DNA of 64,000 nucleotides, from assembly GCA_013374835.1 (NCBI GenBank), contig CP055307.1, positions 146,622 to 210,621 on the forward strand, in the 5' to 3' direction. Below, one piece after another: positions 1-34,282 of this stretch. Positions within the stretch are counted from its first letter, which is position 1, and each line of letters begins with the position of its first letter. Made by a program: the position numbers and the translations under genes. The DNA comes from Candidatus Woesebacteria bacterium (GTDB taxonomy: Bacteria > Patescibacteriota > Microgenomatia > UBA8517). The notes beneath the pieces were generated by a model, which was not told the origin of the DNA, ran no database searches, and was given only the letters and a program-made list of their open reading frames with translations.

Positions 1-966
1 ATTTTTTTTCCGGTAGCAGTTAACGATCTCAGTTCTGAATCCGGTTTTTTAGGTATACCGCTTATGTACGACGGATTAGGCTTGTTTATTAATGAAGAAA
101 TATTCTCAACTTATGCAAGACCGACACCCGAAACCTGGGATGAATTAAGAGATACTGCCGTAGCATTAACTATAAAAAACGAAAATGGATTTATAACACA
201 GGCTGGAGTGGCTCTGGGAAATGCAAAAAATGTCGATCACTGGCAGGAAATCCTAGCGTTAATGATGCTTCAAAATGGAGCAGATTTGAATAAACCGGTT
301 GATCAAAGAACTCAAGGAGCAATCGACTGGTTTGTTTCTATCTCAAGAGATTACAAAATTTGGGACGATACGCTCCCGCCCTCTACTGTTTATTTTGCCA
401 GCGGTAAACTTGCAATGTATTTTGGTCCGTCTTGGCGTGCCATTGAAATTATCAACCAAAATCCAAATCTCAAATTTAGAGTTGTCCCTGTTCCACAGCT
501 TCCCAAAAGCGATCCGTCCGAAAAAGACACGACTTATGCGACATATTGGATAGAATCCGTGTGGAATGAAAGTAAAAATCAAGATGAGGCTTGGAAATTC
601 ATAAAATACCTATCCGAAAAAGAAACTTTACAAAAATTCTACCAGAGTGCAACACAAAGCTCTGCCGCAAGAAGGTTTGGCGAACCATACCCAAGGCGTG
701 ATATGTATGAATCACTTCTAAACGATCCTGTTTTGGGTGGAATAATCAAACTAGCCCCAGACGCAAAGAGCTGGTACTTAGCCTCACGAACATTCGACGG
801 CAAAACTGGGATAAATTCTCGATTAAGCGGATACTTCGAAGATGCAATAAACAAAGCTCTTTCATTACGATTAACAGACAAAGATATGCAAACTTTGTCA
901 ACAGGTGTACAAACGGTACTTTCAGATTATCAATTAATAGCCCCGCCCGTTATCCCAGCAAATTAA
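1..966 (+). CDS. Extracellular solute-binding protein of an ABC transporter (family 1, sugar-type). It is 5'-truncated by the window edge.
   Basis: The frame is open from nt 1 and the ORF track picks it up at 64..966. Length and composition fit the C-terminal two-thirds of a periplasmic substrate-binding protein (for example FASGKLAMYFGPSW). Confidence 0.6.
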   Translation: MFFPVAVNDLSSESGFLGIPLMYDGLGLFINEEIFSTYARPTPETWDELRDTAVALTIKNENGFITQAGVALGNAKNVDHWQEILALMMLQNGADLNKPVDQRTQGAIDWFVSISRDYKIWDDTLPPSTVYFASGKLAMYFGPSWRAIEIINQNPNLKFRVVPVPQLPKSDPSEKDTTYATYWIESVWNESKNQDEAWKFIKYLSEKETLQKFYQSATQSSAARRFGEPYPRRDMYESLLNDPVLGGIIKLAPDAKSWYLASRTFDGKTGINSRLSGYFEDAINKALSLRLTDKDMQTLSTGVQTVLSDYQLIAPPVIPAN

Positions 967-970
967 AAAA

Positions 971-1780
971 ATGCTGTCTCAAAAAAAGCTTTTCTCGCTT
1001 CTTTATCACGATATCTTTGATTATCCGCTAACTAGCGAAGAACTCAACAAGTGGCTCGCCGGAAGTATTATTTCCAAAAAAGATATCGATATAGATTTCT
1101 CGGACGGCTATTACTTTCTTAAAGGACGAAAAAAACTTGTTAAAAAAAGGCTCAAAAGAGCAAGGTATTCGAAAAAAAAATTTTCAATTGCTCAAAAAAA
1201 AGCTTTATTAATAGCAAAAATACCGACAGTAAAATTTGTCGGTATTACTGGATCTCTTGCTATGGATAATTGTAAAATAGATTCCGACATAGATTTTATA
1301 CTTATAACAAAATCACACACGCTTTGGATAACAAGACTGTTTGTTTATCTGCTGCTTCTAATTACGCGCACAAAAGTAAGACACCCAAAAGATAGTATTG
1401 AAAACAATAAGCTTTGTTTAAATATTTGGATGGACGAATTAAATCTAAAAATAAATAAAAAAAATATATATACGGCCCACGAGTTAGCTCAAATTAAGCC
1501 ACTTGTTGACAAAGACAATGTCTTCTCTGAGCTTATTTATGCCAATAGTTGGATATTAAAATATTGGCCAAATGCAGTTAATTTAAGCAAAACTTTTTCT
1601 GGTAAATCCGAATTAAACAAAAAAAATACCTGTTTCTTAATTAAATTTTTAAATAAACTATTTTTTAAAGCCCAACTCTTTTATATGAAACCAAAGCATA
1701 CAAACGAAAAAACTACTCTTTTTCAAGCATTTTTTCATCCGAACGACCTGTCAATAAAAGTGCTTAAAAGACTTAGCTAA
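971..1780 (+). CDS. Nucleotidyltransferase-fold protein (Pol-beta / MNT-like motif G[S]x10DxD: GITGSLAMDNCKIDSDIDFILI).
   Basis: NTase signature GS...DID followed by a helical C-terminal region. There is no obvious partner gene. Confidence 0.45.
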   Translation: MLSQKKLFSLLYHDIFDYPLTSEELNKWLAGSIISKKDIDIDFSDGYYFLKGRKKLVKKRLKRARYSKKKFSIAQKKALLIAKIPTVKFVGITGSLAMDNCKIDSDIDFILITKSHTLWITRLFVYLLLLITRTKVRHPKDSIENNKLCLNIWMDELNLKINKKNIYTAHELAQIKPLVDKDNVFSELIYANSWILKYWPNAVNLSKTFSGKSELNKKNTCFLIKFLNKLFFKAQLFYMKPKHTNEKTTLFQAFFHPNDLSIKVLKRLS

Positions 1781-18639: not shown

Positions 18640-19653
18640 ATGAAAATAATCAGAAAAGAAGAAGACGTATCCAATAAAGAAAGCACTTTTTCAAAAAAGA
18701 AAAAGCAAAAAAAGAACCCTTGGGGGAAAAAAGAAAGATTTGTTATTATCGGAATACTTTTTCTAACAGCGTTTTCATCGGCTATTTTGGCAATATCGGC
18801 AAGAAGCTGGAAACTACCCGGATTTCCAAAACTCAAAGCACCGTCTTTTGAATTTGAAAAAACCTACGTTTATGAAAAAGATATAATCAAAAAATCAGAT
18901 GAAAATATCGAAAAAATTAAAGAAATCTTTAAAAAAGAAACAAACAAACTCTCTGGAGTATATGCCTTTGAGGTGGTACTTCTTGATACAAACGTTGTTT
19001 TTGGTGTAAACGAACAAACAAAACTCCAAGCAGCCTCGTTAATTAAGTTACCCGTTATGGCTCTTTTATATGAAAAAGCGCAAACCGGTAGTCTAGATTT
19101 AGATTATACTTACACGCTTAAAAATTCAGATAAAAAAGCTGGATCCGGAAGTCTATATTCTAAGCCAGAAGGAACAAAAATAACATATAGGAATTTAGCT
19201 CAATTAATGGGTAAAGAATCCGATAACACAGCATTTGCTATAGCGGTAGATATTCTTGGCGAAGAAGAAATAGAAAGCTTTATAAAAAGAGTTGGCATGT
19301 ACGAGACTAGTTTAAGCGAAAATACCACAACCCCCTATGATATCGGCATTTTTTTTAAAAAGCTCTGGAGCGGGGATATCCTCAATCATCAATATAAGGA
19401 AGAATTATTAAATTCTCTAACAGATACAATCTACGAAGACTATTTGCCAAAAGGTATTCCTGAAGAAATTGATGTTTCCCACAAATACGGCCGAGAACTT
19501 CATGTGTTAAACGATGCTGGAATCGTCAGAAGTGAGCCCCCATTTGTTTTAGTTTTAATGAGCGAAGGAATCGTTGAATCCGAAGCTGAAAAAATCTTCC
19601 CAATATTATCAAGAAAGCTTTATCAAGAAATTACATCCCTTTATAAAATTTGA
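18640..19653 (+). CDS. Membrane-anchored class A beta-lactamase-like serine hydrolase (PBP-related).
   Basis: SxxK (ASLIKLP), SDN (KESDNTA) and a KTG-like HKYG motif behind an N-terminal TM helix. It is adjacent to two PBP1A genes. Confidence 0.65.
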   Translation: MKIIRKEEDVSNKESTFSKKKKQKKNPWGKKERFVIIGILFLTAFSSAILAISARSWKLPGFPKLKAPSFEFEKTYVYEKDIIKKSDENIEKIKEIFKKETNKLSGVYAFEVVLLDTNVVFGVNEQTKLQAASLIKLPVMALLYEKAQTGSLDLDYTYTLKNSDKKAGSGSLYSKPEGTKITYRNLAQLMGKESDNTAFAIAVDILGEEEIESFIKRVGMYETSLSENTTTPYDIGIFFKKLWSGDILNHQYKEELLNSLTDTIYEDYLPKGIPEEIDVSHKYGRELHVLNDAGIVRSEPPFVLVLMSEGIVESEAEKIFPILSRKLYQEITSLYKI

Positions 19654-21827
19654 GGTCCATTTTCACCTTCTTTTTTTTCAATAAAAGAGTTTGGGCTGCA
19701 GTGTTTGGTTGGTTTGTTCTCTTGCAAAAACCATTCTGAAATAGTAGGACATCCGGTACACGGCAAAGTCCCTAGAGTTTTGCATATCTCAAGCCGCACA
19801 AGTCCGTTTGGCACCCTCCATTCCACACTTTCCCTGCCAGAGAGTAGATGAATCATAATCTTATTCCATATCGGCGAAGCGCCTGTTACGCCTGAAGCAA
19901 TACTGCTCATTGGAGAGTTGTCGTTATTTCCAACCCAGGTAGCCACAAGGTAGTCTTGATTAAATCCGACAGTAAGATTATCTCTCAAATTATTACTGGT
20001 TCCGGTTTTTACAGCCACTTCGGGATGATTTGGTATTACAAGCATGCTGTTTATCCCAAAAGCAGGAGCTCTTGCAGAGTTATCTCGTAAAATATCAATA
20101 AGCATAAATGCAACTCTTTCGTCAAGCACTCTAATAAAACCGCATTTCTCCTCCGAGCCCTCCTTTGCGCTAACTTCTGCAAGAAATTGTTTGCAACCCT
20201 TAGAATATATGATTTTCCCCTCGGCATCGTATATTTTCTCTATGGAGCTTAAACTTGGACGCATTCCATAATTTGCAACCGTTGCGTAAGCAGTCGCAAG
20301 TTCGATAATTCGCACATCACCACCACCCAAAGTTAAAGATAATCCATAGTCCGATGCATCCTTCCAAGTTGAAATTCCCATTTTTTTTCCCAGCTCCACC
20401 ATTTTATCAACGCCGTATGAAGCAAGCGTTCTTACGGCAGGTACATTTCTTGACTCAGCAAAAGCACTTCTTAAACTAATATTCCCCCTAAATTTTCCGT
20501 CATAATTTTTAGGGGAATAAGGTTCAGTCCCTGCAACACGGAAAGTTATTGGTGAATCCTTTAGCAAAGAAGCGGGAGTATATCCATTTTCAAGAGCATA
20601 GGCATAATTTATAAGTTTTATCGAACTGCCTGGTTGCCTAAGCCTCAAAAGTACGTTTACGTTTCCATCCATTTCTGTATCAAAGTAATCCTTAGATCCG
20701 ACCATCGCCAAAATGTCACCATTTTTGGGATTAAGAACAATAGCAGCCCCATTTGATACATTTAAGTGTCGTATCGACTCTACTTCATTTTTTACTATTT
20801 CCTCCACCCTTTTTTGGAGCTTATAGTCAAGCGTTGTTACGATTTTAAGTCCGCCCTTAAGAACCATCGATTCGCCATATTTGTTAACCAGTTGATCTTT
20901 TACATACATAACAAAATGAGGTGCTTTTATCTCGGTTTTGTTTTTTGAAAATACAAGTTTTTCCTTTTTAGCCTTTTCTGCCTCCTCAAAAGTAATAAAT
21001 TCGTTCGAAACCATAAGATCAATCACTTCGTTTTGCCTTTGAATCGAAAGCTCGGGATTATTTCCAAAAGGGGAAAGCAGCGTTGGGCTTTTGGGCAATC
21101 CTGCCAAAAGCGCTGCCTCTGAAAGCGTAAGCTCGGAAACGTCCTTATCAAAATAAACTCTTGACGCTTCTTTAATCCCGTAAATACTACCTCCGTATGG
21201 AACCTCGTTTAGATACATTTCCAAAATTTCATCTTTTGAATATTTTCTCTCGACATCTATTGCAAGCAAAATCTCTCGCGCCTTTCTTTTTAAGGTTTTC
21301 TCTGGTGTAAGCAAGGCGTTCTTTACAAGCTGCTGTGTAATAGTCGAGCCGCCAGTAACTTTTCCTTCGTCTAAAAAAATACCCAAAGCACGGGTTATGC
21401 CCTTTATAGAAAAACCATGGTGTGAATAAAAATTAGCGTCCTCAGCAGCAAGAGTTGCAAGTTTTACGTTAAGCGGTATTTCAGTTAGCTTTACCCTGCT
21501 TCTGTTTTTGTCTTTATATATTTGATATAAAAGCACGCCGTTTCTATCGTAAATTTTGGTCGAGAGTTCAACATCCCTTTGTATAAGATCCTCGGCCCTA
21601 GGAAGATTGTGAAACAAAAAAGCCCACAGACCAAAAAAAACAAATACCAAAGTAAAATACAAAAAAGTTATCAAAAAAAGCAGTCTTTGAATGCCGCAAG
21701 ACAAGATTGTCCTCGGTAAAATAAAAAATGCCGAAAAAATTTTTCGCAACAGTAACAAAGCCAAATAAATTGTTTTATAAACAGGTTTTCCAATAAAGAC
21801 GAGGATGTATGCTGGTTTTGAAACCAT
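19641..21827 (-). CDS. Class A penicillin-binding protein (PBP1A family; GT51 transglycosylase + transpeptidase).
   Basis: GT51 region ATLAAEDANFYSHHGF; transpeptidase motifs SSIKLINYAYALE (SxxK), SRN and KTGT. Confidence 0.92.
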   Translation of the reverse strand: MVSKPAYILVFIGKPVYKTIYLALLLLRKIFSAFFILPRTILSCGIQRLLFLITFLYFTLVFVFFGLWAFLFHNLPRAEDLIQRDVELSTKIYDRNGVLLYQIYKDKNRSRVKLTEIPLNVKLATLAAEDANFYSHHGFSIKGITRALGIFLDEGKVTGGSTITQQLVKNALLTPEKTLKRKAREILLAIDVERKYSKDEILEMYLNEVPYGGSIYGIKEASRVYFDKDVSELTLSEAALLAGLPKSPTLLSPFGNNPELSIQRQNEVIDLMVSNEFITFEEAEKAKKEKLVFSKNKTEIKAPHFVMYVKDQLVNKYGESMVLKGGLKIVTTLDYKLQKRVEEIVKNEVESIRHLNVSNGAAIVLNPKNGDILAMVGSKDYFDTEMDGNVNVLLRLRQPGSSIKLINYAYALENGYTPASLLKDSPITFRVAGTEPYSPKNYDGKFRGNISLRSAFAESRNVPAVRTLASYGVDKMVELGKKMGISTWKDASDYGLSLTLGGGDVRIIELATAYATVANYGMRPSLSSIEKIYDAEGKIIYSKGCKQFLAEVSAKEGSEEKCGFIRVLDERVAFMLIDILRDNSARAPAFGINSMLVIPNHPEVAVKTGTSNNLRDNLTVGFNQDYLVATWVGNNDNSPMSSIASGVTGASPIWNKIMIHLLSGRESVEWRVPNGLVRLEICKTLGTLPCTGCPTISEWFLQENKPTKHCSPNSFIEKKEGENGPQIL

Positions 21828-21918: not shown

Positions 21919-24171
21919 CTACTTTAGCGGGTAACTAACATTTACGCGATTCATCGGAAAAGGACACGTCAGACATATCATTGTGCCAAGAGGATCATAT
22001 ATTACCAAATGATTTTGCATTTCAATATTTTCAGTCGGAGTATCGGAAGAAGCAAGCGTTTGATTTATTCTATCTATTTGAACATCCTGCCTAGTAGCTA
22101 GATTTTTCTTTGGCAAATTATCTTTAAGAAAATATTCAAATCTTTTTGGACAATCAGCAGATTCGTTTTCGGGTAATCCGCCACTATCGGCACACACGCT
22201 AAGCCCGACAACTTCATCCGGCTTTGTCGGCCAGCCGTGTCCTTTATCCGAAGAATTATAAAATCCTTCTTCTGCTTTATCCAATACCTTTTTCATTATT
22301 CTGTTCCAAATAGGAGAGGCTCCGGATACGCCCGAAACAGCACCGCTCATAGATGTATAGTCGTTGTTTCCCACCCAAGTTAAAACCAAAGCATGTGATG
22401 TGTATCCGACAGTCCAGTTATCTCGAAGATCGTTAGTTGTTCCCGTTTTTACCGAAACCTCGGGATGGCCGCTTACATTAAGATACGAAGAGGCTCCAAA
22501 AGCAGAGGAACGCGCATTGTTGTCGTGAAGGATATGAGAAATTATAAATGCAACACCAGAATTAAGAACCCGTACGCCCTCGGCCTCATCTCTATCATAT
22601 TCAAAAAGTACTTTTCCCTTCCAATCCTCAACTTTAAGGATAGAAACAAGATCTTGTTTTATGCCTTGGTTGGCGAGCACTCCGAACGCAACTGCCATGT
22701 CATAAGGCATCACCTCTCCTCCGCCTAAGGTTAGAGACAGCCCATAATTTTCTGGATCTTTAAAAGTGGTTATGCCCATCTGTGTCGCAAAATCAATAAA
22801 ATTCTCTAAACCGTTAAGCGCAAGCACTCTGACGGCAGGAATGTTATAGGAATTTCCAAGTGCGAATCTTGCTTGTATAGCACCGTGAAATTGCCAGTCA
22901 TAATTTGAAGGACAATAAGGTTTCTGTCCTGCCACTAAAAAACAAGTTGGAACATCTGCAAGTGGTGTGCTGGCAGTTATCTTACCGTCTCTTATGGCCA
23001 GTGCATAATTTAAGGGTTTTATAGAACTTCCGGGTTGTCTTTTTGCGAAAATAATATTTACCTTACCGTCTTCATCCTCTGCGTTATAATTTTTTGAGCC
23101 GACCATAGCAAGTATTTCACCACTTTTAGGTCTTGTTACCAATGCGGCTCCATTACCGACATTTTGATTTTTGAGTTTTTCAACCTCATCGAGCACGATC
23201 TCCTGTGCATACTCTTGTAGCTCAAGATCAAGAGTGGTTGTTACACGAAGCCCCCCTTTCTCAACAACGTTGTCACCATATTCTTTTGCAAGTAATTCTT
23301 TAACCCAAAGCGCAAAATGTGCTGCCTTTAGATCTTTCGCTTCAGCATACTTAAGCTCCTCACTAAGAGCTTGTTCCGCTTCTTCCTCAGTAATATATTT
23401 ATCTTCAACCATCCTTTTTAAAACAAGAGCTTGTCGCTCTTTTGCATATTCGGGATGGGCTCCAAAAGGAGAGTAAAGAGTTGGGGCCGCAGTTAGTCCT
23501 GCTAAAAGTGAAGACTCAGCCAAGGTCAAATCCTCTGCATTTTTGCCGAAATAAAGCTCGGATGCCGACCCGATGCCGTAAGCTGTTGATCCATAAGGGA
23601 CCTGGTTTAAATACATCTCCAATATTTTATCTTTCGGATATCTAAGCTCAACAAGTACGGCCAAAACAAACTCACGGACCTTTCGCTTAATTGTTCTCTC
23701 TGGCGTTAGAAGAGAATTTTTTACAAGCTGCTGCGTAAGAGTGGACCCGCCCTCAAGCTTTTTCCTGAAAATAGTTTTGTATAAAGCTCTGCTCATCCCG
23801 CTAATCGAAAACCCGGGGTGTTTATAAAAATCTTTGTCCTCAATGGCTATCGTGGCTTTTTTAACATGATCGGGAATTCTCTCAAGAGGTATTGGATTTC
23901 TTCTTTGATCGGTATATATTTCATAAATTAATTTCCCTTTTCTGTCATAAAGCTTAGTGGAAATGGCTTGGTCCTTAGAAATATCACCAGTGAAGGGTAT
24001 ACCCCAAAAAAACCACAAACTGAGAATTAAAAAAACAAAAGTTGCCCCTGCAATAACTTTTTTCTTTTTTGAAAGGCTAATTTTTAACAAACGTTTTTTT
24101 TTCTCAAACTGTTGGCCTTGACGCTTTTTGCGCTTCGAATCGGATTTTGTCATGAAGAAATTATACCTCAA
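21919..24171 (-). CDS. Class A penicillin-binding protein (PBP1A family), a paralogue of the previous gene.
   Basis: ATIAIEDKDFYKHPGF, GSSIKPLNY and KTGTTND. The start may be the internal Met at about 24153. Confidence 0.92.
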   Translation of the reverse strand: MRYNFFMTKSDSKRKKRQGQQFEKKKRLLKISLSKKKKVIAGATFVFLILSLWFFWGIPFTGDISKDQAISTKLYDRKGKLIYEIYTDQRRNPIPLERIPDHVKKATIAIEDKDFYKHPGFSISGMSRALYKTIFRKKLEGGSTLTQQLVKNSLLTPERTIKRKVREFVLAVLVELRYPKDKILEMYLNQVPYGSTAYGIGSASELYFGKNAEDLTLAESSLLAGLTAAPTLYSPFGAHPEYAKERQALVLKRMVEDKYITEEEAEQALSEELKYAEAKDLKAAHFALWVKELLAKEYGDNVVEKGGLRVTTTLDLELQEYAQEIVLDEVEKLKNQNVGNGAALVTRPKSGEILAMVGSKNYNAEDEDGKVNIIFAKRQPGSSIKPLNYALAIRDGKITASTPLADVPTCFLVAGQKPYCPSNYDWQFHGAIQARFALGNSYNIPAVRVLALNGLENFIDFATQMGITTFKDPENYGLSLTLGGGEVMPYDMAVAFGVLANQGIKQDLVSILKVEDWKGKVLFEYDRDEAEGVRVLNSGVAFIISHILHDNNARSSAFGASSYLNVSGHPEVSVKTGTTNDLRDNWTVGYTSHALVLTWVGNNDYTSMSGAVSGVSGASPIWNRIMKKVLDKAEEGFYNSSDKGHGWPTKPDEVVGLSVCADSGGLPENESADCPKRFEYFLKDNLPKKNLATRQDVQIDRINQTLASSDTPTENIEMQNHLVIYDPLGTMICLTCPFPMNRVNVSYPLK

Positions 24172-24192
24172 GCTGGTCTATTCGTGTAATAA

Positions 24193-24711
24193 TTGTTAAT
24201 ATATAATTTAAGTTCAATGAATACACTAACTTCAAAACCGTGGTGGAATTATTTGCAAAACGATATTAAAGACTTGCTTGGTGAATCCTTTCTCCTTCTT
24301 GAAAAATCCAAAACGTGGAGAAAAAAGTTTCATGACTATTCGTTTGTAGTATTTCCCGCATCCAAAGCCTATGAGGGATTTTTGAAAATATTACTTCTGG
24401 ACATGGGTCTTATTACGAAAAAAGATTATTTCGGCAAGCATTTTCGCATAGGAAAATCTCTTAATCCGAGTCTAGATGTTAAGTATCGAGATGAAAGCTG
24501 GGTATACGACAATCTTGCTAATTTTTGTAAAAGCGAAAAATTGCCCCAAAAATTATGGAAAACATGGAAAACGGCAAGGAATTTAGTCTTTCACTGGTTT
24601 CCGAACGAAGTAAATGCAATTACACTGCCCGAGGCCGAAGACAGAATAAGGCTCATAATAGAATCAATCGATTTAGTCTATACGGAATGTGGTGTAAAAT
24701 TAATTAGATGA
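24193..24711 (+). CDS. Hypothetical protein with a HepT-like HEPN signature (R-N-x3-H-x-F).
   Basis: TARNLVFHWFPNE matches Rx4-6H / RNxxxHxY-like. The predicted protein is about 170 aa, alpha-helical and small. It overlaps the next gene by 4 nt. Confidence 0.35.
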   Translation: MLIYNLSSMNTLTSKPWWNYLQNDIKDLLGESFLLLEKSKTWRKKFHDYSFVVFPASKAYEGFLKILLLDMGLITKKDYFGKHFRIGKSLNPSLDVKYRDESWVYDNLANFCKSEKLPQKLWKTWKTARNLVFHWFPNEVNAITLPEAEDRIRLIIESIDLVYTECGVKLIR

Positions 24712-25349
24712 AGCTTGACAAATTCAAACACACAATAGCCCTTTATGCATTTCTGCTTGTCGCTTGGGGTTTTTATAGGCTTCTTTTCCAATTCCCCGAA
24801 GAAATTGAAATTCTAATAATTAAACCGCTTGTTTGGCTCGTACCCACATTCTACTTAGTTAAAAAAGAAAAAGAAAAGATTCAAAGCTTAGGTGTTACTA
24901 CCAAAAATTTATTTCCAACGCTTTATTTTGCAATTTTCTTGGGTGCAGTGTTTTTAATTGAAGGCTTGTTTGTTAACTATCTTAAACACGGAAGTTTGTC
25001 TTTTGGAGCAAACATAGGCAGCATTCCTATTCTTGAGGCTGTCTTTCTATCCTTCGCGACAGCTCTCTCGGAAGAAATTACATTTAGGGGCTTTATATTT
25101 ACACGCATTTGGCAGAATCTTAAATCCGAGTGGACCGCAAATATTCTCACCAGTGTAGGATGGACGCTAATACATCTTCCGATAGCTGTACTTGATTGGA
25201 AACTTGCATTATCAGAACTTCTTATATACTCTTTATTGGTAATGTCTTTTTCTTTAGGGGCTTCCTTTATTTTTGCACGCACAAGAAACGTTTTCGCTTC
25301 GGTTTTTCTCCATGTTTTATGGCAGTGGCCGATTATACTATTTAGATAA
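24708..25349 (+). CDS. CPBP-family intramembrane glutamic endopeptidase (CAAX protease / Abi domain, PF02517).
   Basis: Multi-TM protein with an EExxFRG motif (LSEEITFRGFIF) and downstream conserved His residues (LIHLP, FLHVLWQ). Confidence 0.75.
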   Translation: MKLDKFKHTIALYAFLLVAWGFYRLLFQFPEEIEILIIKPLVWLVPTFYLVKKEKEKIQSLGVTTKNLFPTLYFAIFLGAVFLIEGLFVNYLKHGSLSFGANIGSIPILEAVFLSFATALSEEITFRGFIFTRIWQNLKSEWTANILTSVGWTLIHLPIAVLDWKLALSELLIYSLLVMSFSLGASFIFARTRNVFASVFLHVLWQWPIILFR

Positions 25350-25392
25350 TTTGACTATTTGTATCACTATGATCTATTATGATTAGGCTTTT

Positions 25393-26016
25393 ATGCTTCG
25401 GCGTTTAACAATATTATCACCAGTAGTGGTTTTTGCAACGATTATTCTTTTGGCATCTATATTTCGTTCGGCATCGGTTAAATATTCGTTTCATTTACCT
25501 CCTTCAAGCGAGACCATAATTACGGTAAATACTCCAAAAATTGATTATTCTCTTCCCTCGGTTGGAGCAGTTGGTCCAAAGCATCCACTTTGGCCTCTTG
25601 AGGTGGGTCGGGACAAAATTTGGCTTTTTATAAATAGAGATTATCTCAGAAAGGCTGAAATTGCGCTTCTGCTTGCTGATAAAAGGCTTTCTTATGCTGA
25701 TCATTTAATGGGTGAAGGTAACGTTGAATTTAGCATGTCCGTAGCGAGAAAATCGGAGATGTACCTTGAAGAATCCTGCAAATATTTGGAGAAGGCGGAA
25801 GAACACGGAGCAAATGTGCTCGATTTTACAGAAAAATTGTCGCTTGCATCACTTAAACATCGCGAAGTTTTGGAAACAATGCTTACTCATGCTCCAGAAG
25901 ACGCAAAACCCATTCTTATACAAATCCTTAATATTTCAAAAGGAGTTTACGAAAAGACAACTCATCTTCTTAATAAATACCAAAGAAGTCTTTATACAAA
26001 CCCCTTTAAAAGTTGA
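25393..26016 (+). CDS. Membrane-anchored hypothetical protein.
   Basis: N-terminal TM helix and a helical C-terminal region. I recognise no motif. Confidence 0.45.
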   Translation: MLRRLTILSPVVVFATIILLASIFRSASVKYSFHLPPSSETIITVNTPKIDYSLPSVGAVGPKHPLWPLEVGRDKIWLFINRDYLRKAEIALLLADKRLSYADHLMGEGNVEFSMSVARKSEMYLEESCKYLEKAEEHGANVLDFTEKLSLASLKHREVLETMLTHAPEDAKPILIQILNISKGVYEKTTHLLNKYQRSLYTNPFKS

Positions 26017-26077: not shown

Positions 26078-26142
26078 ACACATTTAGTGTTAGAATATTG
26101 TGAATATCACTGGAAATAGTGTTTTTCTATTTCACAAGTGAA
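26078..26142 (+). promoter_or_regulatory. Cluster of CAC/GTG palindromes upstream of nrdR-nrdJ, candidate NrdR boxes and promoter.
   Basis: ACACATTTAGTGT (26078-26090), GTGAATATCAC (26100-26110), CACTGGAAATAGTG (26108-26121) and TTCACAAGTGAA (26131-26142). The 2nd and 4th palindrome centres are about 31.5 bp apart, as in tandem NrdR boxes. A possible promoter is TTGACA at 26070 and TAGAAT at 26091. Confidence 0.45.
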
Positions 26143-26146
26143 ATAT

Positions 26147-26593
26147 ATGAAATGCCCTTTTTGCAATGCAGACGAAACCCACGTACTGGAATCAAGAGCA
26201 ATAGAAGATGGGCGGGTTATAAGAAGAAGGCGGAAATGCATTAAGTGCAAAAAGCGCTTTACAACATACGAAAGCATAAAAAAAAGCGTCCTTTGGGTTG
26301 TCAAAAAGAGTGGTAACAGAGAGCCTTTCGATAAAGAAAAAATTAAAAGAGGTATTTTAAGAGCAATTGAAAAAAGACCTGTATCTCTTGATCTCGTAAA
26401 CGATATCGTAGATCAGGTAGAAAGAGAAATGCTCAAAAAAGAAAAAGAAGAAGTCCCATCCCGCTGGATAGGGAACGAAGTTTTAAAAAGGTTGATAAAA
26501 ATCGACAGAGTAGCCTGGCTTAGATTTGCAAGCGTATATTTGGAGTTTGAGGAACTCAAAGATTTTGAAAACGCAATAATCAAAAAAAAGTAA
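26147..26593 (+). CDS. nrdR: Transcriptional repressor NrdR (zinc ribbon + ATP-cone).
   Basis: MKCPFCNADETHVLESR...CIKCKKRFTTYE followed by an ATP-cone. The ORF track started at an upstream GTG. Confidence 0.93.
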   Translation: MKCPFCNADETHVLESRAIEDGRVIRRRRKCIKCKKRFTTYESIKKSVLWVVKKSGNREPFDKEKIKRGILRAIEKRPVSLDLVNDIVDQVEREMLKKEKEEVPSRWIGNEVLKRLIKIDRVAWLRFASVYLEFEELKDFENAIIKKK

Positions 26594-26594
26594 T

Positions 26595-29045
26595 ATGGTA
26601 ACAAAAAAGAAGCAGCTTAATTTAGAGAGCCTAACATTTCCTTCATATGAGGAAATCAAAACTATAACAGAAAAAAGAGTAGGCAAGATGCCGAAGTTGC
26701 CAAAGGCTCTTCCAAAAGGAGATTGGTCCGAGCAGGCACTAAAAGTGCTGGAAGAAAGATATCTGCAAAGAAATATTAATAACGAAGTGAACGAAACCCC
26801 TGAAGAAATGATCTGGAGAGTTTCCTGGGAAATAGCTTCCGCGGAAGCGATCTGGGGTAAAAAAAGGTCAGAAGTTAGAAACAAAGCAATAGAATTCTAC
26901 AAGCTTCTTATAAGCCGCGAGTTTCTTCCGAATTCGCCAACCCTTATGAACGCCGGTACCGGAAACATGCTTCAATTTTCAGCGTGTTTTGTTCTTCCCG
27001 TAGACGATTCAATGGAGGGAATTTTTGACGCACTCAAATTCCAAGCATTAATACACAAAAGCGGGGGCGGAACCGGCTTTTCCTTCAGCCGCTTAAGACC
27101 TAAAGGATCCTTAGTTAAAAGTAGCAAAGGTACGGCATCGGGTCCAGTTTCGTTTATGAGGGTGTTCGACGCGGCAACGAATGAAGTAAAGCAGGGGGGG
27201 AAAAGAAGGGGGGCAAACATGGGTATCTTAAGAGTTGATCATCCGGACATTTTAGAATTTATCCACTGTAAAGAAGAGGGCGGAATTACAAACTTTAATA
27301 TATCAGTTGCAATTACGGACAAATTTATGGAAGCTTATGAAAAAGACGAAAACTACGACCTTTTAGATCCGAGAACACAAAAAAAGATAGGATCTCTTTC
27401 GGCGCGAAAAGTATTTACACAGATTGCTGAAGCTGCATGGAGAACGGGCGATCCGGGATTAATCTTTATAGATAGGATAAACATGTCCAAAGCAAATCCC
27501 GTACCATCACTTGGTCCTATCGAATCAACTAATCCATGTGGTGAACAGCCTTTATACCCCTTTGACTCCTGCAATCTTGGGAGTATTTTTTTAAGCTATT
27601 TTGTAAAAGAAGATAATAGTGGAGCAAAATCGGTAGATTGGGATAAATTAAAAAAAGTAACAAGACAAGCTGTGAATTTTTTGGACAACGTAATCGAGCT
27701 AAATCCTTATCCACTTGAGGAAATTAGAAGAATTTCCCTTGCAATAAGAAGAATAGGTCTTGGTGTAGGCGGATGGGCTGATATGTTAATCGATTTGGGC
27801 ATACCCTACGATTCTGAGCAAGCTCTCAGACTGGGAGAGAAAATTATGAAAACAATTAGCGAAGAAGCAGTAGCGGCTTCCGAGGATTTGGCTAAAAAAC
27901 GAGGCCCTTTTCCTCTTTGGCCGATTAGTATCTATAAAAACGATAAACCAAGAAGAAATTCAACAGTTACAACAATTGCTCCAACAGGCACAATTTCTAT
28001 AATTGCAGGCACATCAAGTGGTATAGAGCCGATTTTTGCAATAGCATTCCAGCATATTGTAAAAGATAAACATTTAGAAAGAACGCTAAATTTCATAAAT
28101 CCAAAATTCGAAGAAATAGCACGAAAACAGGGGTTTTGGTCCGAAGAAATAGAAAAAAAAGTATCAGAACACGGCACAATTAGAAGTATTGAAGAAATAC
28201 CCGAAGAAGTAAGAAACATATTTGGTACCGCCCACGAAATCCACCACGATTGGCATATAAAAATGCAGTCAGCCTTCCAAAAATATACGGAAAATGCAGT
28301 AAGTAAAACTATAAACCTAAGAAACGAAGTAACTCCTGAAGATGTAAAACAATCTTATGTTCTAGCTTGGAAAACGGGCTGCAGCGGAATCACTGTTTTC
28401 AGAGACGGCTGTAAAAACGCTCAAGTATTAAATCTCGGCATCAAAGAAGAAAAAGAGGGAGAAAAAGGCAATGGAATTATAAAACCAACAGAAGAACGCC
28501 CATTCAAAGTATCAGGTGCCACATACAAACTCAAAACTCCGGTAGGCACGGCCTTTATTACCATAAATGAGGACGACAAAGGCGAACCGATCGAAATATT
28601 TATAAACGTAGGCAAGGCCGGCAGTGATATTACAGCAGTCGCAGAAGCGCTCGGGCGCACGGTTTCAACAGCGCTTAGATTTAAAGGTGTGCTTAGCCCA
28701 AGACAAAGGGCGATAGAAATAGCTAGTCAGCTTTCTGGGATCGGAGGAAGAAGGTCTGTCGGCTTCGGTCCCAACAAAATTCGCTCTCTTCCAGATGCTG
28801 TTGCTGTTGCTCTTTCAAACCATCTTGGTTTTAAGATAAATGGAACTTATCACGAACAGGTAACAGACTCCGAAAAGCTCTATTTGAACAACAAAGAAGG
28901 TCAAGCATATAATTTTACTCAAACACAAGCTGCTTTGGAAATTGTATCGATTAAAGCGGATATTTGCCCTGTTTGTGGAGCAAACGCTTTAGTTTATGAA
29001 GAAGGGTGTGAAAAATGTCACGTCTGTGGTTATTCGGAATGTTAA
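26595..29045 (+). CDS. nrdJ: Class II (adenosylcobalamin-dependent) ribonucleotide reductase.
   Basis: 816 aa with LMNAGTGNMLQFSACFVLPVDDSMEGIF, NPCGEQPL and a C-terminal Cys zinc finger (CPVCG...CEKCHVCG). Confidence 0.9.
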   Translation: MVTKKKQLNLESLTFPSYEEIKTITEKRVGKMPKLPKALPKGDWSEQALKVLEERYLQRNINNEVNETPEEMIWRVSWEIASAEAIWGKKRSEVRNKAIEFYKLLISREFLPNSPTLMNAGTGNMLQFSACFVLPVDDSMEGIFDALKFQALIHKSGGGTGFSFSRLRPKGSLVKSSKGTASGPVSFMRVFDAATNEVKQGGKRRGANMGILRVDHPDILEFIHCKEEGGITNFNISVAITDKFMEAYEKDENYDLLDPRTQKKIGSLSARKVFTQIAEAAWRTGDPGLIFIDRINMSKANPVPSLGPIESTNPCGEQPLYPFDSCNLGSIFLSYFVKEDNSGAKSVDWDKLKKVTRQAVNFLDNVIELNPYPLEEIRRISLAIRRIGLGVGGWADMLIDLGIPYDSEQALRLGEKIMKTISEEAVAASEDLAKKRGPFPLWPISIYKNDKPRRNSTVTTIAPTGTISIIAGTSSGIEPIFAIAFQHIVKDKHLERTLNFINPKFEEIARKQGFWSEEIEKKVSEHGTIRSIEEIPEEVRNIFGTAHEIHHDWHIKMQSAFQKYTENAVSKTINLRNEVTPEDVKQSYVLAWKTGCSGITVFRDGCKNAQVLNLGIKEEKEGEKGNGIIKPTEERPFKVSGATYKLKTPVGTAFITINEDDKGEPIEIFINVGKAGSDITAVAEALGRTVSTALRFKGVLSPRQRAIEIASQLSGIGGRRSVGFGPNKIRSLPDAVAVALSNHLGFKINGTYHEQVTDSEKLYLNNKEGQAYNFTQTQAALEIVSIKADICPVCGANALVYEEGCEKCHVCGYSEC

Positions 29046-29049
29046 TTAT

Positions 29050-29589
29050 ATGTCTATCTACACCAAAAAGGGGGACAAAGGAACAACATCGCTTTTTAAC
29101 CCCGCACTTTACAAAGAAAAAAGAATTCCAAAAAGTGCCCAAAGAATAAGAGTAATAGGCGAAATAGATGAACTAAATAGCTTTCTTGGTATTATTTCAT
29201 CCAAAATTAGAAATAAAGATACTAAAAAATTTATTATCAAAATTCAAAAAAATTTATTTACCATAAACGCTGTTATTGCAGGTGCCAAATTGTCTTTCAA
29301 AAACGAAGAAACAAAGTTTTTGGAAAAAAAGATTGACAAAATCGAAAAATTGCTTCCGCCGCTCAAAAATTTCATAATACCGGGCGGAGACACTCTGGCC
29401 AGCGAAGTTATGTACGCTCGCACAATAGCAAGAAGGGCAGAAAGAGAGCTTGTTGCTTTGAGCAAAAAGGAAAAAGTCAAACCAAGCCTGCTCAAATACA
29501 TTAACAGACTTTCTGACGCTCTCTTTATGGTCTCAAGAAACATAAATTTTGCAAAAGGCAAAAAAGAGACTCCTTGGAAGCCTCGCTAA
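29050..29589 (+). CDS. PduO-type ATP:cob(I)alamin adenosyltransferase.
   Basis: MSIYTKKGDKGTTSL matches the PduO consensus YTRTGDKGTTSL. About 180 aa. It makes functional sense next to the B12-dependent RNR. Confidence 0.85.
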   Translation: MSIYTKKGDKGTTSLFNPALYKEKRIPKSAQRIRVIGEIDELNSFLGIISSKIRNKDTKKFIIKIQKNLFTINAVIAGAKLSFKNEETKFLEKKIDKIEKLLPPLKNFIIPGGDTLASEVMYARTIARRAERELVALSKKEKVKPSLLKYINRLSDALFMVSRNINFAKGKKETPWKPR

Positions 29590-29608: not shown

Positions 29609-29944
29609 ATGGTTGTACCCCCCGAGAAGGAATCGGTTCTAAAAGAATTTGAAATACCCGACGAGCCTGAAATTGGCGAAGGCGCAAGAGAAGCGGGTGT
29701 TTCTGTGCGTCCAGTGTATCCCAGGGTGCCTCCACCTCTTACGCCAAGTAGCGGAGCAACGACCCTTCAAAGAAGAGAAAAAAATGTTCGAAGCGTTGAA
29801 TTTGCTTATCCACAAAATGTATATGAAGATATGTCAAAAGGTTCAGCGTCTGATTCTAAGACCTGGTACGGTGTATTTAATTTAAGAAGAATCAAAAAAG
29901 CACTATTAAAAGGTTTAAGAGTAATTTTAAAAGCAGAAAAATGA
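29609..29944 (+). CDS. Hypothetical Pro-rich small protein in a locally GC-rich segment. The coding status is uncertain.
   Basis: About 50% GC versus about 36% in the flanks, with two overlapping ORFs in different frames (29549..29944 and 29649..29885). Confidence 0.3.
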   Translation: MVVPPEKESVLKEFEIPDEPEIGEGAREAGVSVRPVYPRVPPPLTPSSGATTLQRREKNVRSVEFAYPQNVYEDMSKGSASDSKTWYGVFNLRRIKKALLKGLRVILKAEK

Positions 29945-32283
29945 ATACTTCCACACTCACCCAAAGCATTACAGTTTTTTTCATCTTTTTGTTTTTGTTG
30001 ACATTTTTTTTCATTTTATTTGGCTTTATTGCTTGGTCAATAGCTCTTTATTATCGGCAAAAAGAAAGAGAAAAAAAGTCTCTTGAAGCAGTTCTTCTTC
30101 AGGTTGCCACTCCTAGAGGAAATGAAATAAAGCCGGACGCAATGGAGCAGTTAATAGGGGCTCTCCATTCTATAAAAAAAAGTGGTTGGAAAACACGAAT
30201 CTATGGCCAACCATGTATATCTTTTGAAATAGTAGCCAAACGGGAGGACATTAGATTTTATGTTTGGACGTTTAAAAACCAAAAAGATCTTTTAGAAAAA
30301 CAAATCCACGGCGCTTATCCCGATGCACAAATAACAGAAGTTCCCGAATACAATATATTTTCAGAAAACGGAAAGGTGGCATATAAAGCACTTCAATTAA
30401 AAAAAGATAATTTTTATCCGATAAAGACATTTAAAGAACTGCCCACAGATCCGCTCGCATCAATCACTTCTTCTCTGGCAAAAATGGGGGAAAATGAAGC
30501 CGCATCAATTCAAATCCTTATTTCTCCCGTCGATTCGTCCTGGCAAACCCAAGGCAAAAATTACATTTCACAAACAAAAAAACAGGAATCCGATCCAGAA
30601 AAAGCAAAATATTCTGTGCCAGTCAAAACCCTAGAGGCTGTAGAGAATAAAATCTCAAAGCCCGGCTTTGAGGTTTCAATTAGGCTGGTAGTGGTTTCGG
30701 AAACAGAGGATTCCGCTAAGGCGCACCTAGGAAATGTAGTAAGCGCTTTTTCACAATTCGATGGAGACTTAAACGGCTTTGGTTCAAGAAAAATAAGAAA
30801 CAAAGGGGCATTTATCGAAGATTTTATTTACAGATATCACCCCCTTTTCCATTTTGGCAAAAATAGAATATCAATCCTAAACGCGGAAGAAATCGCCACA
30901 ATTTTTCATTTTCCAAACAAACTTATAACAACACCGCATATCTACTGGCTTAACGCAAAGCGCGCTCCGGCACCAGCAGAAATACCTACACAAGGACTCT
31001 ATCTTGGCATAAGTAGCTATAGAGGCGTAAAACGTGAAGTCTTCATTTCGGATCCGGATAGATTAAGGCACATGTATATAATTGGACGCACAGGTACGGG
31101 TAAATCCGAGTTTCTCAAAAACATGATCAGGCAGGATATAAACGAAGGAAAGGGTTTGTGTTTTATGGATCCTCACGGAGATGCAGTAGAAGACATTCTA
31201 AATTTTATCCCACCAGAACGCGCAGAAGACGTTATTTATTTTCGCCCGTCCGACTCAGAAAGACCAATGGGACTAAATCTTCTGGAAGCTAAAACAGAAG
31301 ACCAGCAGCATTTTGCAGCAACAGCGGTTATTAATATGATGTACAAGCTCTTTGATCCCTACAAAACCGGAATAGTAGGTCCTAGATTTGAACATGGTGT
31401 AAGAAATGCAATGCTTACAGTAATGCAGGGAATGGAAGGGGGAACATTTATAGAAGTAATGAAAGTAATGACAAACTCACGTTTTGTCCAGGAACTTTTG
31501 CCGAGAGTTAAGGATCCAATAGTCAGAAGTTATTGGCAAGACCAAATTGCTCAAACTTCAGATTTTCATAAATCCGAAGTTCTTGACTATACTGTTTCTA
31601 AATTTGGCCGCTTCGTGACAAACAGAATGGTACGCAACATAATCGGTCAATCAAAATCTTCCTTCTCATTTAGAGACATAATGGATAACGGCAAAATCCT
31701 GCTTATCAACCTTTCCAAGGGAGAGCTGGGCGAGGAAAACAGTAGCTTTCTGGGTCTGGTTCTTGTACCAAGAATACTTATGGCCGCTATGAGTCGATCG
31801 GATATTCCTGAAGAAAATAGGCGTGACTTTTATCTTTATGTAGACGAGTTTCAGAATTTTGCAACGCCCGATTTTGCTCAGATTTTATCCGAGGCAAGAA
31901 AATACAAGTTAAGCTTGACTGTTGCAAACCAATTCATAGGTCAAGTTGATGAGGAGGTAAAAAACGCTGTATTTGGAAACGTTGGAACCCTAATTTCATT
32001 TAGAGTTGGGGTTAATGACGCAAACTACTTAACCCACGAATTTAGCCCTGTTTTTGGCGAAGATGATCTCTTAAACATTGAGCGCTATCATGCTTTTGTC
32101 AAAACAATTGTTAACAACGAACCCGTACCTCCTTTTTCAATGGATACAACAATGAATTTGGAAGAAATCGCAAAAAAAAGAAACATCAAAGTAGCCGAAG
32201 TTATCAAAGAAATGAGCAGACTAAAATACGGTAAGGATGTAAGGTTGGTAGAATCGGAAATAAATTCAAGAGCAAAGCTTTAA
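29941..32283 (+). CDS. Membrane-anchored HerA/FtsK-superfamily P-loop ATPase (DUF87 / VirB4-VirD4-TraD-like conjugation-type ATPase).
   Basis: N-terminal hydrophobic hairpin. Walker A GRTGTGKSEF is followed by CFMDPHGD (the DPHGE motif of the HerA/VirB4 family), and Walker B is LYVDEFQNF. The 330-aa N-terminal domain is of unknown type. Confidence 0.65.
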   Translation: MNTSTLTQSITVFFIFLFLLTFFFILFGFIAWSIALYYRQKEREKKSLEAVLLQVATPRGNEIKPDAMEQLIGALHSIKKSGWKTRIYGQPCISFEIVAKREDIRFYVWTFKNQKDLLEKQIHGAYPDAQITEVPEYNIFSENGKVAYKALQLKKDNFYPIKTFKELPTDPLASITSSLAKMGENEAASIQILISPVDSSWQTQGKNYISQTKKQESDPEKAKYSVPVKTLEAVENKISKPGFEVSIRLVVVSETEDSAKAHLGNVVSAFSQFDGDLNGFGSRKIRNKGAFIEDFIYRYHPLFHFGKNRISILNAEEIATIFHFPNKLITTPHIYWLNAKRAPAPAEIPTQGLYLGISSYRGVKREVFISDPDRLRHMYIIGRTGTGKSEFLKNMIRQDINEGKGLCFMDPHGDAVEDILNFIPPERAEDVIYFRPSDSERPMGLNLLEAKTEDQQHFAATAVINMMYKLFDPYKTGIVGPRFEHGVRNAMLTVMQGMEGGTFIEVMKVMTNSRFVQELLPRVKDPIVRSYWQDQIAQTSDFHKSEVLDYTVSKFGRFVTNRMVRNIIGQSKSSFSFRDIMDNGKILLINLSKGELGEENSSFLGLVLVPRILMAAMSRSDIPEENRRDFYLYVDEFQNFATPDFAQILSEARKYKLSLTVANQFIGQVDEEVKNAVFGNVGTLISFRVGVNDANYLTHEFSPVFGEDDLLNIERYHAFVKTIVNNEPVPPFSMDTTMNLEEIAKKRNIKVAEVIKEMSRLKYGKDVRLVESEINSRAKL

Positions 32284-32310
32284 AAATTTTGCTAAAATAC
32301 CCTAAGTTTA

Positions 32311-32383
32311 GGATGCGTAGCTCAGTGGTTAGAGCACCGATCTTATAAGTCGGGGGTCGATGGTTCAAATCCATCCGCATCCA
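32311..32383 (+). tRNA. tRNA-Ile with anticodon UAU (TAT).
   Basis: Manual fold: acceptor GGATGCG/CGCATCC, D-arm GCTC-AGTGGTTA-GAGC, anticodon stem CCGAT/GTCGG with loop CTTATAA (U33, anticodon TAT, A37), T-arm GATGG-TTCAAAT-CCATC, discriminator A. Confidence 0.8.
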
Positions 32384-32429
32384 CCCTATAAGCCTCGGAA
32401 TTGAAAGAACATGCTAGCTTGATTATATA

Positions 32430-32681
32430 ATGGTGATTAAACTCCAAAGATCGTTTCTTGATTTAAACTACAATTATTCAATGCCAAATAGAAAATCGAG
32501 GCCTTTAGGTAGATCGAGAAGTACTTGTTATTTGAGCGTGGTATGCCCAAACAATATCAGAAATATTGTTTGGGATTATCTTGCATCAGGCACTCTCGAC
32601 ACTGATACAAGATTGTCCCTGCATTCAGAAGAAAACTTTGCCGATGCTTTGGAAAAGATGAATATCCTGAAGAATATATAA
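32430..32681 (+). CDS. Doubtful small ORF (83 aa) between tRNA-Ile and the recombinase. It may be non-coding and could contain an att-like region.
   Basis: Odd composition (S/R/N/C-rich) and no recognisable motif. Confidence 0.15.
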   Translation: MVIKLQRSFLDLNYNYSMPNRKSRPLGRSRSTCYLSVVCPNNIRNIVWDYLASGTLDTDTRLSLHSEENFADALEKMNILKNI

Positions 32682-32691
32682 CAAAACCATT

Positions 32692-33555
32692 TTAGAGCTC
32701 CTCAAGCTGCTGCTTTTTTCCGGGTTCTTTAATTTCGGCAAGCTCCAAATAACGCTCTGTAGTAGAAAGTCTCTTATGTCCTACAGCGTGAGATATGGTT
32801 ACCAGGTCGACATTTCTTTTAAGATTCTCAACTATAAAAGTAGTTCTAAGATCATTAACGGAATATTCCGGTATTTCGGCCTTTTGCATATACCTATCAA
32901 TTGCAGCACGTATATTTCGAACAGCTAAAGGCTTCCCGTTTTTGCTGACAAAAAGATATTCGGACTTAGTGTTCGGCCTTATTCTTATATATTCTTCAAT
33001 TGCAACCAAGGCGGCTCTGTTAAGTTGTACCGTCCTTTCGGGTTGTGTGGCGTAGGATTCAATAACTACGCGATCCTTTTTGATATTGTTAAACTTTAGA
33101 TTCGCAACCTCGGAAATTCTCATTCCCGTCTGGAGAATAAGCTCAACAATAGCGGCAATTCTGGGATCCGTTCTAACAACGTCTCTTAGAGCCCTATACT
33201 CAAGTTGAGACAAAAATTTTGGCAAAGAAGTCTTAATTTTAGGGTGGTCAACATCTTGTGAAGGATCGCTCGAAATAATTTTTTTATCCTTAATCCATCT
33301 AAAAAAGGTTTTTATCGCATTAAGCTTTCTGGATACGGTTTTGGGAGTGTATTTTTGATTCAATAGAAAATCGCGAAATCCCTCAAGATCACCTTGCTTA
33401 ATGTGGCTTGGGAGGACCTTGTTGTGTTGTGCAAGAAAGTCAACAAGCTGCTCAAGATCAGATTTATAGGCTAAAATCGTAGAAGGTGAACGGCCTTTTT
33501 CCTTTAAATCATCTATGAATTTTGGCAGAAGAGATTTTAGCGATTCCTCATTCAT
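32692..33555 (-). CDS. Tyrosine site-specific recombinase (XerC/XerD-like or integrase).
   Basis: N-terminal SAM-like domain (TILAYKSDLEQLVDFL); catalytic GMRISE (Arg) and HAVGHKRLSTTERYL (H-x-x-R ... Y). Confidence 0.85.
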   Translation of the reverse strand: MNEESLKSLLPKFIDDLKEKGRSPSTILAYKSDLEQLVDFLAQHNKVLPSHIKQGDLEGFRDFLLNQKYTPKTVSRKLNAIKTFFRWIKDKKIISSDPSQDVDHPKIKTSLPKFLSQLEYRALRDVVRTDPRIAAIVELILQTGMRISEVANLKFNNIKKDRVVIESYATQPERTVQLNRAALVAIEEYIRIRPNTKSEYLFVSKNGKPLAVRNIRAAIDRYMQKAEIPEYSVNDLRTTFIVENLKRNVDLVTISHAVGHKRLSTTERYLELAEIKEPGKKQQLEEL

Positions 33556-34101: not shown

Positions 34102-34171
34102 TGCGGGGTAGTGTAGGGTTGCACGGAAGGCTCATAATCTTCCAGACCGGGTTCAACTCCCGGCCCCGCAA
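34102..34171 (+). tRNA. tRNA with anticodon CAU (Met elongator, or Ile2 if lysidinylated).
   Basis: Manual fold: acceptor TGCGGGG/CCCCGCA, anticodon stem GAAGG/TCTTC with loop CTCATAA, T-arm CCGGG-TTCAACT-CCCGG. The D-loop and variable loop are short, and pair 1-72 is U-A. Confidence 0.6.
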
Positions 34172-34206
34172 CAAGATAGCGCTAATAGCCAGCAAGTTTA
34201 GTATAG

Positions 34207-34279
34207 GCCAGGGTAGCTCAGTCGGCAGAGCACAGGATTCATAAACCTGCGGTCGTGGGTTCGATCCCCACCCCTGGTA
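34207..34279 (+). tRNA. tRNA with anticodon CAU (Met, fMet or Ile2 cannot be distinguished).
   Basis: Manual fold: acceptor GCCAGGG/CCCTGGT (G1-U72), D-arm GCTC-AGTCGGCA-GAGC, anticodon loop TTCATAA, T-arm GTGGG-TTCGATC-CCCAC, discriminator A followed by CC. Confidence 0.7.
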
Positions 34280-34282
34280 CCG

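Follow-up and report, generated by a model that had tools for sequence, protein, structure and literature searches.

In a Candidatus Woesebacteria bacterium (assembly GCA_013374835.1, contig CP055307.1), a gene for a small HEPN-domain protein of the RNase LS class runs directly into a gene for a CPBP-family membrane protein. We consider, with a probability of roughly 55%, that the two proteins form a membrane-docked endoribonuclease belonging to a core cell-envelope gene cluster of the Microgenomates, and not a mobile toxin/immunity module. The stretch analysed, referred to here as the window, comprises 64,000 nucleotides (positions 146,622 to 210,621 of the forward strand of the contig), and coordinates are counted from its first letter. 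Sequence and fold show the first protein to be a true HEPN domain of the RNase LS class in which the whole active-site set (K50, E53, R121 and H126) is present, and its functional link to the CPBP protein is well supported. The pair, its motifs and the third gene of the co-directional set are as follows.

24217..24711, plus strand: solo RNase LS-class HEPN gene, ATG start, 164 aa
24364..24375, plus strand: codons for K50-A-Y-E53, aligned with LsoA R243/E246 and equivalent to RnlA R255/E258
24577..24594, plus strand: codons for R121-N-L-V-F-H126, the HEPN R-x4-H motif, aligned with LsoA R305/H310
24708..24711, plus strand: ATGA stop/start overlap of 4 nt between the HEPN gene (TGA 24709-24711) and the CPBP gene (ATG 24708-24710)
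24708..25349, plus strand: CPBP/Rce1-like polytopic membrane protein, 213 aa, N-terminus predicted inside the cell
25071..25091, plus strand: codons for EEITFRG (CPBP motif 1), residues 122-128
25393..26016, plus strand: DUF5667 protein, third gene of the set, a marginal match to PF18915 (27.5 bits vs 27)

The HEPN gene can also be read as a longer open reading frame (ORF) from a TTG start (24193..24711, 172 aa). Homologues begin at the internal ATG at 24217, among them the 93% identical protein P0001 (164 aa), which starts with MNTLTSKPWW, and the gene is therefore likely to be 24217..24711. A preliminary description, made from the letters of the DNA without database searches, had drawn attention to the string RNLVFHWF (encoded at 24577..24600), the 4-nt overlap, the EExxFRG motif of a CPBP protein and a membrane-anchored third protein, all of which are in place. 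The HEPN protein contains no hydrophobic segment and is therefore predicted to be cytoplasmic. A contig of Candidatus Woesebacteria bacterium UBA1430 matches 8.5 kb of the window at 94.7% identity, which marks the DNA as part of a Microgenomates/Patescibacteria genome of the candidate phyla radiation (CPR).

A fold match gave the protein the four-helix up-down architecture of HEPN domains, a point that the preliminary description had proposed to check, and the R-x4-H motif stands where the last core helix region begins. A profile built from 26 family members matched a single solved protein, the toxin LsoA (E=0.006), with K50-A-Y-E53 aligned on R243-A-I-E246 and R121-x4-H126 on R305-x4-H310. 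Each of the residues R255, E258, R318 and H323 of RnlA is needed for RNase activity and toxicity (PMC8266594); the place of the arginine in the R255/E258 pair is taken here by K50. Together with E53, R121, N122 and H126, this lysine is invariant in the HEPN family sequences (81/81), and one HEPN-CPBP fusion protein has arginine at its position. The bare R-x4-6-H pattern, present in 20 of the 54 long ORFs of the window, is uninformative on its own, and among the same ORFs RNxxxH occurs solely in the HEPN ORF. The HEPN motif stands above chance because it is invariant family-wide and is accompanied by the LsoA profile match and the fold match. Most homologues have precomputed PF18869 (RNase LS) matches, and the domain assignment itself is not new, since automated Pfam annotation already tags many homologues HEPN_RnaseLS. 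A single-sequence search of PDB sequences with the window protein returned nothing meaningful, NCBIfam gave no useful match, and Foldseek found no significant match among viral structures, the best relevant one being an 'RNaseLS-like protein' (E 0.76).

The preliminary description had placed the protein in the HepT flavour of HEPN domains. The HEPN identification stands, given the fold and the LsoA profile match, and the HepT assignment was rejected: there is no DUF86/HepT Pfam match, the RX4HXY motif is lacking, and the class is RNase LS. What is shared with HepT/MntA (DUF86, type VII toxin-antitoxin) is the HEPN fold and the R-N-x3-H string, and no MntA nucleotidyltransferase gene adjoins the HEPN gene. 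The ORF at 971..1780, earlier labelled MNT-like, was discarded as an MNT candidate, as it has no Pfam match at E<=0.001; upstream of it, ORF 64..966 encodes a solute-binding protein fragment.

Several features set the gene apart from RnlA and LsoA. It encodes a solo HEPN domain of 164 aa, without the N-terminal TBP-like (NTD/NRD) or RNase H-like domains of those toxins, and the first residue of its catalytic tetrad is lysine instead of arginine. No RnlB or Dmd-type antitoxin is found here; the neighbours are PBP1a, CPBP and DUF5667 genes, and the partner is the CPBP membrane protein. Further, RnlA and LsoA belong to sporadic defence loci, whereas the present gene is part of the chromosomal core of a CPR class.

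The CPBP gene product matches PF02517 at 53.5 bits (cut-off 22.4). Its N-terminus is cytoplasmic as judged by charge distribution (positive-inside count), and EEITFRG is predicted to lie where the fourth hydrophobic segment ends on the cytoplasmic side. Both the N-terminus and the EExxxR motif thus lie on the cytoplasmic side, which is compatible with a cytoplasmic HEPN partner. The residues E122, E123 and R127, and H156 of motif 2, are invariant in 71/71 orthologues and in 25/25 fusions. The closest likeness of the CPBP half is to SpdC (LyrA), which belongs to the SagB-SpdC complex for peptidoglycan release. SpdC serves a peptidoglycan hydrolase as a scaffold and itself acts without catalytic residues, so that members of the family can function non-catalytically. 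Two differences accompany that likeness: the catalytic E-E-R-H residues are invariant here, whereas SpdC works without them, and the partner here is a cytoplasmic HEPN domain, whereas that of SpdC is an extracellular glucosaminidase. With the CPBP/Abi proteins of bacteriocin self-immunity, the protein shares the Pfam family PF02517, but no bacteriocin gene cluster is present, and the gene is conserved, syntenic and core, not accessory.

Conservation of the pair was examined in a Woesebacteria set with one genome per species, in which 80 loci were kept of 174 species and 79 were informative for CPBP. Gene order in the 80 loci is near-constant: PBP1a(-), PBP1a(-), HEPN(+), CPBP(+), DUF5667(+), NrdR(+) and ribonucleotide reductase (RNR)(+). 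The CPBP gene lies directly downstream of the HEPN gene in 71/79 informative loci, with a gap that is negative in 13, 0-30 nt in 35 and >30 nt in 23; tight spacing is typical, and the ATGA overlap of the window is not universal. Pairs also occur without PBP1a, either beside methyltransferase and DsbD/copper-ATPase genes or beside a peptidyl-tRNA hydrolase gene (loci L154, L155 and L166). In addition, at least 25 protein clusters (381-393 aa) from Shapirobacteria and other Microgenomates are in-frame HEPN-CPBP fusions, two of which carry NCBI names (a Shapirobacteria protein and a protein of a Microgenomates bin). The fusions diverge to 40% identity with the catalytic motifs of HEPN and CPBP both intact. 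Two of them, P0124 and P0408, were each found on 11 contigs, the P0124 places shown being from four samples, and the fusion gene still faces away from two PBP1a genes in places with other genes downstream. In an AlphaFold2 model of a fusion, confident over its full extent (predicted local distance difference test, pLDDT, 91.4; predicted template modelling score, pTM, 0.84), the last HEPN helix runs almost directly, as a continuous helix, into the first transmembrane (TM) helix. The pairing noted in the preliminary description is hence a conserved one, in the Woesebacteria loci, in other gene contexts and as fusions.

Outside the curated loci, a word-indexed search found >1,100 close relatives of the HEPN protein, nearly all of 160-175 aa and either unnamed or annotated as 'hypothetical protein' from Woesebacteria or Patescibacteria. 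An exhaustive hidden Markov model search of 1.84 billion cluster representatives returned only 208 clusters at E<=0.001, and the family is therefore narrow. A second subfamily of ~2,000 proteins occurs in Roizmanbacteria and other Microgenomates, and more distant members carry 2-4 N-terminal TM helices ahead of the HEPN domain. One of the latter, P0233 (312 aa, N-terminal multi-TM region plus HEPN), has its gene immediately after those for an AAA ATPase and an S8 peptidase (L090:1240-5939, and L091), which is possibly a different, conflict-type context for the same HEPN subfamily.

The inheritance of the gene follows that of its neighbours. Relative to the proteins of the window, median identity is 52% for HEPN, 53% for CPBP, 37% for DUF5667, 47-64% for PBP1a and 70% for NrdR, the HEPN value being similar to that of CPBP and inside the span of the flanking housekeeping genes. 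Pairwise identities of HEPN correlate with those of the neighbouring genes (rho 0.51-0.57; 0.60 for PBP1a vs NrdR), and this correlation, together with the fixed synteny, fits vertical co-inheritance. On the endoribonuclease reading, Microgenomates (Woesebacteria, Shapirobacteria, Roizmanbacteria and relatives) carry the HEPN gene as a core gene, single-copy and passed on vertically. CPBP is absent from its position in 8/79 Woesebacteria loci, a count made at the locus only, and all eight retain the K/E/R/N/H residues. In a neighbour-joining tree built from the HEPN proteins, these loci fall in scattered places, a pattern suggestive of repeated independent loss; in one species, an unrelated ORF of ~240 aa (MSVDHEGYLIG...) occupies the CPBP position (L016:4487-5483). 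In the Roizmanbacteria-type subfamily, CPBP is adjacent in 4/80 loci and not adjacent in 76/80, and HEPN is intact. The usual downstream neighbour in this subfamily is a P-type cation ATPase (36/68 loci), and upstream are a PF13189 kinase-like gene (31/65) or the gene for ribosomal protein L1 (15/65).

From the observed fold, motif conservation, gene linkage, fusion and synteny, we infer a mechanism in which the HEPN protein would act as a metal-independent endoribonuclease, active as a dimer like other HEPN enzymes; as in RnlA, the R-x4-H face would probably form the dimer contact. In the Woesebacteria lineage to which the window belongs, it would be co-transcribed, and often translationally coupled, with CPBP, and would most likely dock on CPBP at its cytoplasmic N-terminal side; in Shapirobacteria, the two are a single polypeptide, by which the RNase domain would be held against the inside of the membrane. 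The unit would then work with an envelope cluster, PBP1a-(GH18)-PBP1a, HEPN-(kinase)-CPBP-DUF5667 and NrdR-RNR, and not in defence. Because the cluster is conserved and the CPBP protein is SpdC-like, a role in cleaving RNA near the membrane, in connection with the biogenesis or homeostasis of the envelope, is likelier than a toxin/immunity function.

A number of points weigh against this mechanism. The window protein passes PF19034 (RNase LS) marginally, at 28.0 bits against a cut-off of 27, and falls below the cut-off of PF18869 (22.4 bits against 29), the first residue of the catalytic set is lysine and not arginine, and RNase activity is predicted from homology. Contact between HEPN and CPBP is suggested by the fusions and the pTM value of a model, and the tie to cell-wall synthesis is read from gene neighbourhood. 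Stable gene order in the reduced genomes of the CPR generally inflates adjacency counts. The 76/80 loci without an adjacent CPBP gene indicate that HEPN can work without that neighbour, and the invariant catalytic residues of CPBP are unlike the purely scaffolding picture drawn from SpdC.

The preliminary description had proposed a possible toxin/immunity or abortive-infection module. In a module of this kind, a HEPN toxin would be restrained by the CPBP/Abi protein and freed on phage attack or membrane damage. Such a module would be in keeping with the anti-phage toxins RnlA and LsoA as the closest solved relatives, with the presence of bacteriocin immunity proteins in the CPBP family, and with the tight coupling and occasional fusion of the two genes; one fusion is named 'CAAX amino terminal protease self-immunity' by NCBI, and the AAA ATPase and S8 peptidase next to distant TM-anchored relatives could be a conflict system. 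The genomic pattern points elsewhere. The gene occupies a fixed syntenic place among housekeeping genes in ~80 species, with no patchy, mobile or defence-island distribution, and its divergence tracks that of the neighbouring genes. PADLOC defence models matched none of the HEPN, CPBP and DUF5667 proteins, and neither an RnlB nor an MNT partner is present. Strict co-occurrence of the two genes does not hold, as intact HEPN genes lack an adjacent CPBP gene in the 8/79 and 76/80 loci (counted at the locus level), and such free loss of CPBP from loci with intact HEPN would not be expected of an obligatory antidote. A covalent fusion of toxin and antidote kept down to 40% identity would also be atypical. 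Given the core synteny, the empty PADLOC result and the CPBP-less intact HEPN genes, this reading is poorly supported, and we regard it as decidedly unlikely.

It is also unlikely that the HEPN domain is non-nucleolytic, serving as a nucleotide- or RNA-binding regulatory subunit or as an adaptor of CPBP, PBP1a or the nucleotide-metabolism cluster. Some HEPN domains are indeed non-catalytic binders (PMC3710099), SpdC-type CPBP proteins serve as scaffolds, the first catalytic-set residue has changed from R to K, and P-loop kinase-like neighbours of the nucleoside monophosphate kinase type in several lineages, with NrdR and RNR, would suit such a role. However, non-catalytic HEPN domains typically lose the R-x4-6-H motif (PMC3710099), and R121, N122, H126 and E53 are invariant in all members examined, fusions included, which is the pattern of an active family. 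The least probable alternative, in our judgement, is that HEPN and CPBP adjoin each other without meaning, as a frozen gene order of small genomes. The whole 8-kb block, including the unrelated NrdR and RNR genes, is equally conserved, 23/71 loci have a HEPN-CPBP gap of >30 nt, and CPBP has been lost from its position several times. An old and widespread in-frame fusion that keeps both active-site motifs is difficult to reconcile with frozen order, as is a pair that persists in other neighbourhoods without PBP1a and stays joined where downstream synteny breaks.

A further reading extends the membrane-docked endoribonuclease into a device that signals from the envelope to RNA, as a bacterial counterpart of Ire1; it is speculative, and we consider it very unlikely. 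In such a device, the SpdC-like CPBP protein, together with the two class A penicillin-binding proteins (PBPs) and, in some lineages, GH18, would sense lipid-linked peptidoglycan intermediates or the state of the membrane. It would then switch the dimerisation or activity of the attached HEPN domain, so that transcript stability might be tuned to cell-wall synthesis in bacteria without most conventional regulators. Other membrane-anchored bacterial HEPN proteins have been predicted to degrade RNA at the inner membrane face in response to stimuli, like Ire1 (Anantharaman et al., 2013; PMC3710099). The likeness to those proteins and to Ire1/C6orf70 lies in a cytoplasmic HEPN domain tethered by TM segments, with proposed stimulus-responsive RNA cleavage at the membrane, and the family of the window also has distant members with N-terminal TM helices. 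In contrast, the three bacterial groups of Anantharaman et al. are other HEPN families (DUF4145-like and others), none paired with CPBP; their paper makes no mention of CAAX/CPBP partners and nowhere uses the term CAAX.

Literature searches for HEPN with CPR bacteria or with CPBP, made within one searchable library, found nothing relevant. Three aspects appear to be undescribed: the occurrence of a stand-alone HEPN protein of RNase LS type as a core gene throughout a class of the CPR, the conserved coupling or fusion of this protein to a CPBP membrane protein, and the placement of its gene among those of class A PBPs. What is known of the RnlA/LsoA class of HEPN RNases is a sporadic occurrence as anti-phage toxins, whereas here the catalytic domain is a conserved core gene of an ultrasmall CPR class. 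If the proposed mechanism is true, bacteria have turned an RNase of the conflict type to housekeeping or envelope-linked use, the poorly understood bacterial homologues of CAAX proteases gain a concrete cytoplasmic partner, and a 'hypothetical protein' of thousands of Patescibacteria genomes gains a testable function. The fusions are currently annotated solely as CPBP proteases, and their HEPN half is overlooked.

The remaining features of the conserved block in the window are listed below.

19641..21827, minus strand: second class A PBP, Pfam match, conserved neighbour
21919..24153, minus strand: class A PBP (transglycosylase and transpeptidase), PF00912 206 bits, PF00905 58 bits
24154..24216, no strand: divergent PBP1a/HEPN intergenic region, arrangement conserved in related loci
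26138..26593, plus strand: NrdR repressor (Pfam), downstream end of the conserved block
26595..29045, plus strand: RNR large-chain homologue (Pfam), downstream end of the conserved block

The PBP gene at 21919..24153 is transcribed divergently from the HEPN gene and is kept as its neighbour in related loci. The region between the two (24154..24216) probably holds both divergent promoters; no consensus sigma-70 site was found in it, and a promoter and terminator scan gave counts no higher than in shuffled sequence. The DUF5667 protein (25393..26016) has one N-terminal hydrophobic/TM segment (residues 1-30), and in most loci its gene comes after CPBP or directly after HEPN. In the 43-nt gap before it in the window, there is a sigma-70-like site (25351..25380; TTGACT, 18-nt spacer, TATTAT; 10/12 matches), and the gene might have its own promoter, such sites in the region being no more frequent than the shuffled expectation.

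Divergent lineages keep the block in the form PBP1a-GH18-PBP1a, HEPN, P-loop kinase, CPBP, DUF5667 and NrdR. GH18 genes, all on the minus strand, lie between the two class A PBP genes at L086:1308-2477, L176:1306-2499, L178:1152-2363 and L179:1062-2294; no gene lies between the two PBP genes of the window. By analogy, a GH18 gene near an SpdC-like CPBP gene recalls the hydrolase/scaffold pair SagB-SpdC. PF13189 (Cytidylate_kin2) kinase-like genes are found between HEPN and CPBP at L086:5583-6203, L176:5631-6269 and L178:5637-6281, and divergently upstream of HEPN in the Roizmanbacteria-type subfamily (for example L106:1379-2047, minus strand). HEPN and kinase could represent a nuclease/kinase pairing, or just nucleotide metabolism. 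The two kinase groups have no detectable similarity to each other, and neither occurs in the window or in the Woesebacteria loci; the kinase was consequently rejected as a general, Las1-Grc3-like partner of HEPN and kept as a lead only.

Downstream of the block, a cobalamin adenosyltransferase gene (28996..29589; PF01923, 170 bits) shares 50 nt with the 3' end of the RNR gene, and a local supply of adenosylcobalamin would be sensible if the reductase is B12-dependent. In the fusion-bearing lineages, the reductase at the RNR position is NrdD. Beyond this lie a gene for a TraG/VirD4-like coupling ATPase (29941..32283), tRNA-Ile with anticodon TAT (32311..32385), a tyrosine recombinase gene (32692..33555, minus strand) and then two tRNA-Met genes, the features extending over 29941..33555 and 34102..34281. 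These features may be part of the type IV system of Patescibacteria or an integration hotspot.

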